A stretch of 64,000 bases of DNA, from assembly GCF_003334815.1 (NCBI RefSeq), contig NZ_QOWO01000013.1; one strand, given 5' to 3'. This document shows, piece by piece, positions 36,316 to 39,141 of this stretch. This DNA comes from Escherichia coli. GTDB lineage: Bacteria; Pseudomonadota; Gammaproteobacteria; Enterobacterales; Enterobacteriaceae. Made by a program: the position numbers and the translations under genes. The stretch's first letter is position 1, and every line of letters starts with the position of its first letter. The notes under the pieces are model-generated. The model had not been told where the DNA came from and did not search any database. It saw only the letters and a program-made list of their open reading frames with translations.

Positions 36316-36489
36316 TATCACGGATGCTTTTATAAAAATAATTAGAATAAGTCACTACGCATTCCCATAAATGCGGGAGAGGAATCTATCACATTGATGA
36401 ATGTTAGCCAGATATACGCCAGGAATGGGGAATTGTTTAGCGGCAGAATATGTAAACAAAAGCGGCAATAAATGTTGCCGGGAGAGATG

Positions 36490-36528
36490 GTAGGGCGGAT
36501 AAGATGCGTCAGCATCGCATCCGACACC
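36490..36528. repeat. REP element
   Basis: GTAGGGCGGATAAGATGCGTCAGCATCGCATCCGACACC. Confidence 0.6.
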
Positions 36529-36540
36529 AACCCGCACGCT

Positions 36541-36572
36541 AAATATAAAAGGGGAGCGGTTTCCCGCTCCCC
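36541..36572 (-). terminator. Rho-independent terminator of the tisAB transcript
   Basis: GGGGAGCGG/CCGCTCCCC hairpin with a flanking A-rich run on the plus strand (a T/A-rich run on the minus strand), just 3' of tisB. Confidence 0.65.
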
Positions 36573-36594
36573 TTTGGTGCGACTTGAATCTGAA

Positions 36595-36684
36595 TTACTT
36601 CAGGTATTTCAGAACAGCATCAAGCAGTTGCAGTGCTGCAACAATGAGTTTGAGGATAAGAATGGCGATATCCACCAGGTTCAT
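36595..36684 (-). CDS. tisB: SOS-induced toxic membrane peptide TisB (type I toxin)
   Basis: Minus-strand ATGAACCTGGTGGATATCGCCATTCTTATCCTCAAACTCATTGTTGCAGCACTGCAACTGCTTGATGCTGTTCTGAAATACCTGAAGTAA = MNLVDIAILILKLIVAALQLLDAVLKYLK (29 aa); absent from the ORF track because it is under 60 aa. Confidence 0.9.
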   Translation of the reverse strand: MNLVDIAILILKLIVAALQLLDAVLKYLK

Positions 36685-36786
36685 ACGCGTCTCCTGTGGT
36701 TCAGGAGCACTGCCAGCTGACGTACCTTTCCGCTGCCTGTTGCCAGCTGTTGTGCACGCGGTATCTCAAGGAGAAACGTTGTGCTT

Positions 36787-36807
36787 GTTGACATAACACA
36801 GTGTGCT
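36787..36807 (-). promoter_or_regulatory. IstR-1 antisense target site in the tisAB 5' leader
   Basis: GTTGACATAACACAGTGTGCT lies about 100 nt upstream of the tisB start and matches 37045..37065 at 20 of 21 positions. Confidence 0.6.
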
Positions 36808-36920
36808 CACGCGGGGTTAAGGCGCTGACGGCACCACCCGTTTCAGCCAGGACTTAGTGCGCCGGGTAACGATGCGGCCCCCGCATAACACATTGCGTAC
36901 AGTGATATTATAGAAGTTTA

Positions 36921-36936
36921 CTGTATAAATAAACAG
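36921..36936. promoter_or_regulatory. LexA (SOS) box between divergent tisAB and istR-2
   Basis: CTGTATAAATAAACAG matches the CTG-N10-CAG LexA consensus. Confidence 0.8.
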
Positions 36937-36974
36937 TAATATTTGGACAAAACGCAAACTGTGATCGATACTCA

Positions 36975-37119
36975 ACTATGCACTAAATACGTCAAAATTC
37001 GTGCCGAAATTGCGCGTTCTGCGCGGAACACGTATACTTTCAGTGTTGACATAATACAGTGTGCTTTGCGGTTACCAGCCGCAGGCGACTGACGAAACCT
37101 CGCTCCGGCGGGGTTTTTT
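36975..37119 (+). ncRNA. istR: istR locus (IstR-2 with nested IstR-1 antitoxin sRNA); boundaries approximate
   Basis: Divergent from tisAB; contains the 21-nt block complementary to the tisAB leader at 37045..37065 and ends at a GC-rich segment followed by TTTTTT (about 37101..37119). Confidence 0.5.
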
Positions 37120-37248
37120 GTTATCTGCAATTCAGTACAAAACGTGATCAACCCCTCAATTTTCCCTTGCTGAAAAATTTTCCATTGTCTCCCCTGTAAA
37201 GCTGTGCTTGTATAAATATTGTTAAACACAAAACCAACAAGGTCCCCA

Positions 37249-37347
37249 ATGACTACTTCCATGCTCAACGCAAAACTACTACCAACTGCGCCATCCGCCG
37301 CAGTGGTCGTCGTGCGTGTGGTGGTGGTCGTCGGCAATGCGCCGTAG
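37249..37347 (+). CDS. ivbL: ilvB operon leader peptide (Val/Leu attenuation)
   Basis: ATG...TAG encoding MTTSMLNAKLLPTAPSAAVVVVRVVVVVGNAP (32 aa) with a run of Val codons, upstream of ilvB. Confidence 0.9.
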   Translation: MTTSMLNAKLLPTAPSAAVVVVRVVVVVGNAP

Positions 37348-37374
37348 GGACTGGAACAACACACGATTCCAAAA

Positions 37375-37405
37375 CCCCGCCGGCGCAAACCGGGCGGGGT
37401 TTTTC
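37375..37405 (+). terminator. ilvBN attenuator terminator
   Basis: CCCCGCCGGCGCAAACCGGGCGGGG hairpin followed by TTTTT, between ivbL and ilvB. Confidence 0.8.
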
Positions 37406-37452
37406 GTTTAAGCACCTCCCGGAAAGTCGGCCCAGAAGAAAAGGACTGGAGC

Positions 37453-39141
37453 ATGGCAAGTTCGGGCACAACATCGACGCGTAAGCGCTTTACCGGCGCA
37501 GAATTTATCGTTCATTTCCTGGAACAGCAGGGCATTAAGATTGTGACAGGCATTCCGGGCGGTTCTATCCTGCCTGTTTACGATGCCTTAAGCCAAAGCA
37601 CGCAAATCCGCCATATTCTGGCCCGTCATGAACAGGGCGCGGGCTTTATCGCTCAGGGAATGGCGCGCACCGACGGTAAACCGGCGGTCTGTATGGCCTG
37701 TAGCGGACCGGGTGCGACTAACCTGGTGACCGCCATTGCCGATGCGCGGCTGGACTCCATCCCGCTGATTTGCATCACTGGTCAGGTTCCCGCCTCGATG
37801 ATCGGCACCGACGCCTTCCAGGAAGTGGACACCTACGGCATCTCTATCCCCATCACCAAACACAACTATCTGGTCAGACATATCGAAGAACTCCCGCAGG
37901 TCATGAGCGATGCCTTCCGCATTGCGCAATCAGGCCGCCCAGGCCCGGTGTGGATAGACATTCCTAAGGATGTGCAAACGGCAGTTTTTGAGATTGAAAC
38001 ACAGCCCGCTATGGCAGAAAAAGCCGCCGCCCCCGCCTTTAGCGAAGAAAGCATTCGTGACGCAGCGGCGATGATTAACGCTGCCAAACGCCCGGTGCTT
38101 TATCTGGGCGGCGGTGTGATCAATGCGCCCGCACGGGTGCGTGAACTGGCGGAGAAAGCGCAACTGCCTACCACCATGACTTTAATGGCGCTGGGCATGT
38201 TGCCAAAAGCGCATCCGTTGTCGCTGGGTATGCTGGGGATGCACGGCGTGCGCAGCACCAACTATATTTTGCAGGAGGCGGATTTGTTGATAGTGCTCGG
38301 TGCGCGTTTTGATGACCGGGCGATTGGCAAAACCGAGCAGTTCTGTCCGAATGCCAAAATCATTCATGTCGATATCGACCGTGCAGAGCTGGGTAAAATC
38401 AAGCAGCCGCACGTGGCGATTCAGGCGGATGTTGATGACGTGCTGGCGCAGTTGATCCCGCTGGTGGAAGCGCAACCGCGTGCAGAGTGGCACCAGTTGG
38501 TAGCGGATTTGCAGCGTGAGTTTCCGTGTCCAATCCCGAAAGCGTGCGATCCGTTAAGCCATTACGGCCTGATCAACGCCGTTGCCGCCTGTGTCGATGA
38601 CAATGCAATTATCACCACCGACGTTGGTCAGCATCAGATGTGGACCGCGCAAGCTTATCCGCTCAATCGCCCACGCCAGTGGCTGACCTCCGGTGGGCTG
38701 GGCACGATGGGTTTTGGCCTGCCTGCGGCGATTGGCGCTGCGCTGGCGAACCCGGATCGCAAAGTGTTGTGTTTCTCCGGCGACGGCAGCCTGATGATGA
38801 ATATTCAGGAGATGGCGACCGCCAGTGAAAATCAGCTGGATGTCAAAATCATTCTGATGAACAACGAAGCGCTGGGGCTGGTGCATCAGCAACAGAGTCT
38901 GTTCTACGAGCAAGGCGTTTTTGCCGCCACCTATCCGGGCAAAATCAACTTTATGCAGATTGCCGCCGGATTCGGCCTCGAAACCTGTGATTTGAATAAC
39001 GAAGCCGATCCGCAGGCTTCATTGCAGGAAATCATCAATCGCCCTGGCCCGGCGCTGATCCATGTGCGCATTGATGCCGAAGAAAAAGTTTACCCGATGG
39101 TGCCGCCAGGTGCGGCGAATACTGAAATGGTGGGGGAATAA
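37453..39141 (+). CDS. ilvB: Acetolactate synthase I large subunit
   Basis: 562-aa thiamine-diphosphate enzyme ORF MASSGTTSTRKRFTGAEFIVHFLEQQGIKIVTGIPGG... Confidence 0.95.
   Translation: MASSGTTSTRKRFTGAEFIVHFLEQQGIKIVTGIPGGSILPVYDALSQSTQIRHILARHEQGAGFIAQGMARTDGKPAVCMACSGPGATNLVTAIADARLDSIPLICITGQVPASMIGTDAFQEVDTYGISIPITKHNYLVRHIEELPQVMSDAFRIAQSGRPGPVWIDIPKDVQTAVFEIETQPAMAEKAAAPAFSEESIRDAAAMINAAKRPVLYLGGGVINAPARVRELAEKAQLPTTMTLMALGMLPKAHPLSLGMLGMHGVRSTNYILQEADLLIVLGARFDDRAIGKTEQFCPNAKIIHVDIDRAELGKIKQPHVAIQADVDDVLAQLIPLVEAQPRAEWHQLVADLQREFPCPIPKACDPLSHYGLINAVAACVDDNAIITTDVGQHQMWTAQAYPLNRPRQWLTSGGLGTMGFGLPAAIGAALANPDRKVLCFSGDGSLMMNIQEMATASENQLDVKIILMNNEALGLVHQQQSLFYEQGVFAATYPGKINFMQIAAGFGLETCDLNNEADPQASLQEIINRPGPALIHVRIDAEEKVYPMVPPGAANTEMVGE

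Follow-up and report, generated by a model that had tools for sequence, protein, structure and literature searches.

The tisB/istR-1 type I toxin–antitoxin locus in an Escherichia coli chromosomal region, and the conservation of its antisense pairing across enterobacterial genera

Organisation of the tisB/istR locus

The region described here lies in a 64,000-nt stretch of E. coli DNA, referred to below as the window, and corresponds almost certainly to tisB/istR-1, the type I toxin–antitoxin module known from the E. coli K-12 chromosome. In a comparison of 1401 bp with E. coli K-12 MG1655, a single base differs, and it falls within emrD; the tisB/istR locus itself is base-for-base that of MG1655 (b4618/b4616), with no difference across its whole length. 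Window positions are obtained as 3890237 minus the K-12 coordinate, and on this conversion the K-12 RefSeq annotation places tisB, istR-1 and istR-2 at exactly matching positions. The neighbouring genes are emrD, the small ORF ysdE, ivbL and ilvB. The toxin gene occupies the minus strand and istR the plus strand; the two are divergent and non-overlapping, and the intergenic region between them contains the LexA operator. The features are given below, with the evidence for each.

36548..36575, minus strand: intrinsic terminator of tisAB, with a 12-bp stem and a U-rich tail (inverted repeat; terminator scan)
36595..36684, minus strand: tisB coding sequence, a 29-aa membrane toxin (ORF list, NCBIfam, RefSeq)
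36681..36794, minus strand: tisA, a leader ORF of 37 codons whose AUG (+107) lies inside the IstR target (ORF list)
36690..36695, minus strand: tisB Shine–Dalgarno (SD) sequence AGGAGA, 5 nt 5' of the AUG (sequence; PMC11264685)
36787..36808, minus strand: IstR-1 target in the tisAB mRNA, about +93..+114 (repeat, co-folding, 22 conserved pairs)
36813..36853, minus strand: near-invariant core of the 5' UTR, +48..+88, mRNA GUCCUGGCUGAAACGGGUGGUGCCGUCAGCGCCUUAACCCC (alignment of leaders)
near 36900 (±3), minus strand: predicted transcription start of tisAB (promoter geometry, 359-nt length, PMC2577331)
36907-36912, minus strand: tisAB promoter −10 element TATAAT (sequence; hexamer in PMC11264685)
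36919..36938, no strand assigned: LexA operator TACTGTATAAATAAACAGTA, 20-nt form (consensus match)
36944..36972, plus strand: IstR-2 promoter, TGGACA (36944-36949), 17-nt spacer, GATACT (36967-36972) (promoter scan; PMC11264685)
36980..37119, plus strand: IstR-2, 140 nt, the SOS-induced longer form sharing its 3' end with IstR-1 (RefSeq K-12 mapping; Rfam)
37010..37038, plus strand: IstR-1 promoter, TTGCGC (37010-37015), 17-nt spacer, TATACT (37033-37038) (sequence; PMC11264685)
37045..37119, plus strand: IstR-1 antitoxin RNA, 75 nt if it starts at 37045 (RefSeq, predicted fold, pairing boundary)
37045..37066, plus strand: antisense tail of IstR-1, nt 1-22, partner of 36787-36808 (repeat, covariation)
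37094..37117, plus strand: intrinsic terminator of istR (terminator scan; Rfam structure line)

The 29-aa TisB reading frame that the earlier note had placed at 36595..36684 on the minus strand is present, and its translation, MNLVDIAILILKLIVAALQLLDAVLKYLK, passes both NCBIfam models for TisB, NF011340 (69.6 bits, cut-off 53) and TIGR04459 (59.9 bits, cut-off 38), in each case over residues 1-29 of 29; both are curated equivalog models, in which membership is assigned to a whole protein scoring over the cut-off. At this length the ORF falls under the 60-aa default cut-off of the ORF lister. The window encodes the K-12 variant with N at position 2, and across E. coli the S2 variant of TisB is the commoner of the two (PMC11264685); AGGAGA has been given as the tisB ribosome-binding site (RBS) in the same study (PMC11264685).

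The tisAB terminator sets the 3' end of the RNA near 36542, and the published length of the tisAB RNA is 359 nt (PMC2577331). An RNA of 359 nt starting at 36900 would finish at 36542, just beyond the terminator, and the plasmid-insert geometry of PMC2577331 fits a start near 36900 within 3 nt. With +1 set at 36900, the target occupies +94..+114, the tisA AUG lies at +107 and the tisB AUG at +217. Upstream of the target, the 41-nt leader core was near-invariant in 30 divergent leaders, with one variable base (CAG[C/T]GCC) and a few single-sequence differences, and the same region, 36813..36853, has been published as the 5' structure or pseudoknot element of the standby site (PMC7708055, PMC6690012). 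The published masking helix, which joins the 5' end to the target, was not recovered by RNAalifold from these 30 leaders, whose first 25 nt vary too much to be aligned.

On the opposite strand, the Rfam istR family (RF01400) matched positions 36990-37119 at 150.1 bits against a gathering threshold of 45, covering model positions 1-130 of 130. With the NCBIfam TisB and Rfam istR scores far over their thresholds, and with the identity to K-12, the earlier assignment of the region to a tisB/istR type I locus proved right, and so did its description as known biology: the genes, promoters, LexA box, terminators and 21-nt complementarity agree throughout with the published descriptions. The hexamers listed above are those published for IstR-1 (TTGCGC/TATACT), IstR-2 (TGGACA/GATACT) and the tisAB −10 element (TATAAT; PMC11264685); the promoter scan independently recovered the IstR-2 promoter, and the terminator scan both the tisAB and the istR terminators. 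Furthermore, the LexA box CTGTATAAATAAACAG that had been claimed at 36921..36936 is present, and its 20-nt form, with two mismatches to TACTG(TA)5CAGTA, is unique in the 64-kb window; the number of LexA-type sites in shuffled sequence was 0. The operator lies just upstream of the tisAB −10 element and 5 nt upstream of the IstR-2 −35 element.

Several further elements flank the module. Between emrD and a REP element lies ysdE, a 24-aa ORF at 36397-36471 on the plus strand in RefSeq (36394-36471 in the ORF list, MMNVSQIYARNGELFSGRICKQKRQ). The REP-type palindromic element itself, noted in PMC2577331, occupies 36484-36540 between ysdE and the tisB terminator; in E. coli STEC367 (L084, 290-460) and similar strains, 36489-36520 is replaced by ~170 nt of a different, larger palindromic repeat. 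On the other side, the ivbL leader peptide of the ilvBN operon is encoded at 37250-37348 on the plus strand (NCBIfam NF007579, 78.7 bits) and is followed just 3' by a terminator-like hairpin at 37371-37390, presumably the ivbL attenuator. Over 16 nt the stem of this hairpin (37371-37386) shows 94% complementarity to the arm of the IstR terminator at 37102-37117, an inverted repeat that was set aside as probably a chance similarity of G+C-rich terminators. An Rfam match to Pseudomonas P6 at 37373-37558 scored 22 bits against a threshold of 50 and consists mainly of the hairpin 3' of ivbL (37373-37390); it was likewise attributed to chance.

The direct repeat and the predicted IstR-1–tisAB duplex

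Two plus-strand blocks, 36787..36807 (GTTGACATAACACAGTGTGCT) and 37045..37065 (GTTGACATAATACAGTGTGCT), constitute the direct repeat described in the earlier note, with identity at 20 of 21 positions. A repeat search of the 64 kb allowing up to three mismatches returned these two blocks as the only matches, and 100 shuffles returned 0, leaving no chance match. At the DNA level the repeat extends to 22 nt when the T common to 36786 and 37044 is counted. The placement of the blocks was also correctly given: the first lies in the leader of the minus-strand tisAB transcript, 102 nt from the tisB AUG (described before as about 100 nt upstream), and the second at the 5' end of IstR-1. Since transcription of tisAB and istR uses opposite strands, minus for the former and plus for the latter, two directly repeated DNA blocks give complementary RNAs. 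The sole difference between the blocks, C at 36797 against T at 37055, sets a U of IstR opposite a G of the mRNA as a G·U wobble; with G·U pairs at IstR nt 11 and nt 22, the RNA duplex contains one wobble when counted as 21 bp and two when counted as 22 bp.

In the literature, a complementarity of 21 nt, blocking of the standby site and an RNase III cut to +106 have been reported (PMC4147584, PMC6690012), and the target is the portion of the reported ribosome standby site that is single-stranded (PMC6690012). The proposed complementarity between IstR and the tisAB mRNA, and its agreement with the published standby pairing, are thus borne out, with 22 conserved pairs against the 21 nt reported. 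If +1 lies at about 36900, the published +106 RNase III cut would fall inside the duplex, opposite IstR nt 9/10.

Prediction of the RNA duplex, which had been suggested as a check, gave a stable interaction: the net energy (co-folding minus monomers) was −26.1 kcal/mol for IstR-1 with the +42 mRNA, −22.8 kcal/mol with the +1 mRNA and −10.9 kcal/mol with the +106 mRNA, in which 9 bp are left. The raw duplex energy had a z of −5.8 relative to shuffled IstR-1. In the predicted fold of IstR-1, nt 1-12 are free and are followed by two hairpins, nt 13-21 forming the base of the first; this fold agrees with the Rfam consensus structure. The mRNA target was mostly unpaired in the consensus fold, and its mean unpaired probability rose modestly from 0.385 in the +1 form to 0.48 in the +42 form, the 5' half opening most, while the predicted accessibility of the tisB SD and AUG was equal in +1, +42 and +106 (0.28-0.30). 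Given this modest opening of the target and the unchanged accessibility of the SD and AUG, thermodynamics alone does not prove standby; the prediction by itself did not reproduce the published activity differences among the isoforms, and the standby step rests on the experiments that established it (PMC6690012, PMC7708055).

Other repeats near the target were also considered. A 14-nt repeat links GCTCACGCGGGGTT (36805-36818) with the arm of the IstR terminator at 37102-37115; we take this to be a chance similarity between G+C-rich sequences, because the mRNA side conserves only AACCCC in other genera. The repeat core also has a third, incomplete copy, CATAACACATTG, at 36884-36895 (tisAB +6..+17), within the 41 nt lost on processing. 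It was not retained as a general feature: the core TGTGTTATG was found in 16 of 57 loci and a one-base variant, TGCGTTATG, in one more, the sampled leaders with this copy being from Escherichia, Salmonella and Citrobacter.

Conservation of the pairing across enterobacterial genera

Conservation was examined in 80 loci from about 20 enterobacterial genera, which were anchored on the neighbouring gene emrD, TisB (29 aa) being too short to serve as a query. A full-length tisB ORF was present in 56 of the 80 loci and istR in 55, the two occurring together with one exception, and 18 of the 20 loci tested passed the Rfam istR threshold. In the 56 listed loci that carry istR, TTGCGC and TATACT (TATAGT in Kosakonia/Phytobacter) keep a constant distance, and a CTG-N10-CAG box stood at a fixed distance in all 57 loci (57/57). 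In many Enterobacter, Klebsiella and Leclercia loci and in some of Citrobacter, a second CTG-N10-CAG box lies 28-29 nt downstream of the first (for example CTGAGTATGTTCGCAG, in loci such as L064, L044 and L076) and overlaps the predicted tisAB start; judging by its sequence it may be an additional LexA operator. No second box of this kind was found near the tisAB start in E. coli.

For covariation, constructs joining the IstR tail to the target were aligned with both blocks in register, giving 47 distinct sequences. Across the 21 pairs, 98.1% of cells were standard pairs, as against 20-46% when the partner columns were slid. Double changes were observed at three pairs, a number reached by 2 of 500 shuffles, these counts covering related sequences and not independent events: IstR nt 7 is G-C in 28 and A-U in 15 of the 47 sequences, nt 12 is G-C in five, and nt 16 is C-G in one. 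Four more pairs vary on one side alone, between G-C and G·U. A few lineages tolerate an A·C mismatch, which falls at nt 5 of IstR in Kosakonia/Phytobacter and at nt 7 in three Citrobacter and Intestinirhabdus loci.

The limits of the pairing are sharply drawn in this alignment. In all 47 sequences IstR nt 22 forms a 22nd pair, G·U or G-C, with the mRNA G at 36808, and since nt 22 pairs in 47/47 while the flanking positions pair in 10-18/47, the duplex, as judged by its conservation, comprises 22 bp, IstR nt 1-22 (37045-37066) with 36787-36808. The longer pairing suggested by co-folding, of 32-33 intermolecular pairs reaching IstR nt 50, was rejected as not conserved, with 10-18 of 47 sequences paired beyond the 22nd pair. 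On the other side, the position just upstream of 37045 is paired in 16 of 47 sequences, and the T at 36786/37044 was therefore dismissed as an extra pair, being conserved in these 16 only and lying upstream of the IstR-1 start.

This boundary bears on the 5' end of IstR-1. RefSeq annotates the RNA at 37047-37119 (73 nt), an end that would drop the first two pairs; a length of 75 nt, the one commonly given for IstR-1, would set the end at 37045. The conserved duplex begins exactly seven bases past the TATACT hexamer, and because it starts exactly at 37045, the pairing boundary favours this position over 37047. It also bears on whether SOS-induced IstR-2, rather than IstR-1, acts on tisAB through the block, for which we see only a slim chance. 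IstR-2 (36980-37119) includes the same 22 nt and its promoter adjoins the LexA box, but the conserved pairing stops at 37045, the IstR-1 5' end, and goes no further upstream; moreover, in the consensus structure of Rfam the 5' domain specific to IstR-2 partly hides the tail, its positions 36991-36995 and 37000-37001 pairing with 37044-37050. This pairing of the first bases of the tail fits the reported absence of repression of tisB translation by IstR-2 (PMC11264685), and IstR-1 remains the favoured partner.

The target block also contains the start of tisA, and a reading in which it is kept as the beginning of a TisA peptide, the similarity to istR being a leftover of duplication without a pairing role, deserves consideration. 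The tisA ORF (36681-36794) begins within the block, and its conservation within E. coli exceeds 99%, with "biological implications unknown" (PMC11264685). Across genera, however, its start codon is ATG in 17 of 57 loci and ACG in 40, the length of the ORF varies between 8 and 72 codons and its end point differs, no NCBIfam model matched tisA, and the literature offers no evidence of its translation (PMC11264685). The ACG start in 40 of 57 loci therefore points to selection on RNA pairing and not on tisA coding. Furthermore, the U→C change that destroys the AUG is the one matched by A→G in IstR, at the nt 7 pair described above, which argues that the block is conserved for pairing rather than for coding. 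Across the genera compared, tisA is thus not a conserved coding sequence, and a TisA-based explanation of the block is highly improbable.

There remains the proposal that the repeated block is a DNA-level signal, such as a −35 element or a protein-binding site, and not an RNA pairing site, whose probability is next to nil: both copies contain a perfect TTGACA on the plus strand, but the promoter scan found no matching −10 element downstream of either and reported only the IstR-2 promoter-like site, the matched changes keep Watson–Crick or G·U geometry, with G·U tolerated and transversions rare, a pattern for which a DNA-binding site would not account, and the conserved block starts exactly at the predicted RNA 5' end.

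For the pairing of IstR-1 with tisAB, the distance between target and tisB AUG fell into three clade-specific classes, 66-70, 100-105 and 117-135 nt, and the "~100 nt" spacing therefore holds for a subset of lineages including Escherichia and Salmonella. The most divergent pair was that of Enterobacter sp. ENT03 (L070), in which istR fell under the Rfam threshold (nhmmer 25.8 bits), the duplex contains three mismatches and the TisB C-terminus differs too; this tisB/istR system may be drifting or retuned. As a combined proposal, selection on a 22-bp duplex from IstR-1 nt 1, with the tisA start sacrificed in most genera and the standby site set at three distances, is possible but distinctly tentative, and the original papers may already contain some or all of the cross-genus points.

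Variation of the module, related systems and control of TisB synthesis

The tisB/istR module together with the adjacent REP element (window 36484-37130) shows presence/absence polymorphism. Of 5426 complete E. coli genomes, 4151 carry the full tisB/istR locus, in every case on the chromosome. The place of the module is taken in E. coli FDAARGOS_1262 (L083) by about 114 nt of unrelated DNA, with the same junctions in E. albertii (L005). In Escherichia sp. MOD1-EC7003 (L003, 2695-2733) a 471-bp deletion fuses window position 36636 to 37108 and leaves a truncated tisB remnant; it takes the 5' half of tisB, the leader, the LexA box, all promoters and most of istR, and since it spans both genes, toxin and antitoxin were lost together.

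A different arrangement occurs in Klebsiella michiganensis DSM 25444 (L042, NZ_PRDB01000001.1, 776-1040), in which tisB, the leader and the LexA box are intact and istR was not found within the 3-kb flank. Homology to K. oxytoca ends at position 1035, and a group II intron (Rfam RF02005, 180.6 bits) was identified at 776-1001 on the istR strand. The bases next to the LexA box read GTGCG on the istR strand, and GTGCG is the usual 5' end of a group II intron. The intron thus appears to abut the LexA operator, pushing istR past the 3-kb flank.

The control of TisB synthesis would proceed as follows. LexA bound at 36919-36938 would repress the minus-strand tisAB promoter, and DNA damage would relieve this repression; the derepressed promoter would give an mRNA of ~359 nt from about 36900, the primary +1 form of which would be inert, and the plus-strand TTGCGC/TATACT promoter would supply IstR-1 constitutively. 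In the published mechanism, processing of the +1 to the +42 mRNA exposes the standby site (PMC6690012, PMC7708055, PMC4147584, PMC5668327). According to published experiments, IstR-1 pairs with this single-stranded segment of the processed +42 mRNA, ~100 nt 5' of the structured tisB RBS, and so excludes 30S subunits and protein S1 from the standby site; the duplex is in turn a substrate of RNase III, cleavage yielding the inert +106 mRNA, and TisB is made only when the induced mRNA exceeds IstR-1. The same body of work shows TisB to depolarise the inner membrane and to favour the formation of persisters. The present analysis covers what the parts are, their complementarity, the predicted stability of the duplex and its maintenance in evolution; for the ends of the transcripts, the mechanism of standby, cleavage by RNase III and toxicity it relies on the literature.

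Several type I systems share parts of this organisation. The dinQ/agrB pair of E. coli is likewise SOS-induced, with divergent, non-overlapping genes and a LexA-controlled toxin, and it also combines an inert primary mRNA with activation by 5' processing and an antitoxin that pairs far upstream of the RBS (PMC5668327); unlike tisB/istR, it does not use ribosome standby, AgrB inducing instead a refold that sequesters the SD (PMC5668327), and its toxin and RNAs are unrelated in sequence. In zorO/orzO of E. coli O157:H7 and in shoB/ohsC, as in tisB/istR, the genes form divergent pairs in which a short DNA repeat is the antisense match, and zorO further resembles tisB in that 5' processing exposes a standby site for which OrzO competes, RNase III cleaving the duplex (PMC5668327). 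These two systems differ from tisB/istR in belonging to other toxin families with other RNAs and in not being described as LexA-controlled (PMC5668327), and both are absent from the tisB/istR locus. The hok/sok system of plasmid R1 is also of type I, with an mRNA that is inert until processed, an antisense RNA that acts upstream of the toxin RBS and a duplex cleaved by RNase III (PMC4147584); in contrast, Sok is cis-encoded, overlaps its target and blocks the coupled leader ORF mok, whereas the leader ORF tisA of tisB/istR is unneeded and unconserved.

Taken together, the earlier reading of the locus is correct, small refinements aside, no observation speaks against it, and the finding is already known. 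For the window itself there is no new biology, the refinements being the 22-bp boundary, a non-coding tisA across genera and a variable distance from standby site to start codon. The tisB/istR-1 module is the model case both for control by ribosome standby and for a persister toxin induced in the SOS response, and it serves as a positive control in which an RNA–RNA interaction is readable from DNA as a direct repeat in divergently transcribed genes, a reading that can be validated by cross-genus covariation of the two copies. A constraint at the RNA level would explain the >99% conservation of tisA within E. coli and, if the cross-genus proposal is true, relocation of the standby site would tolerate a two-fold range of distances.
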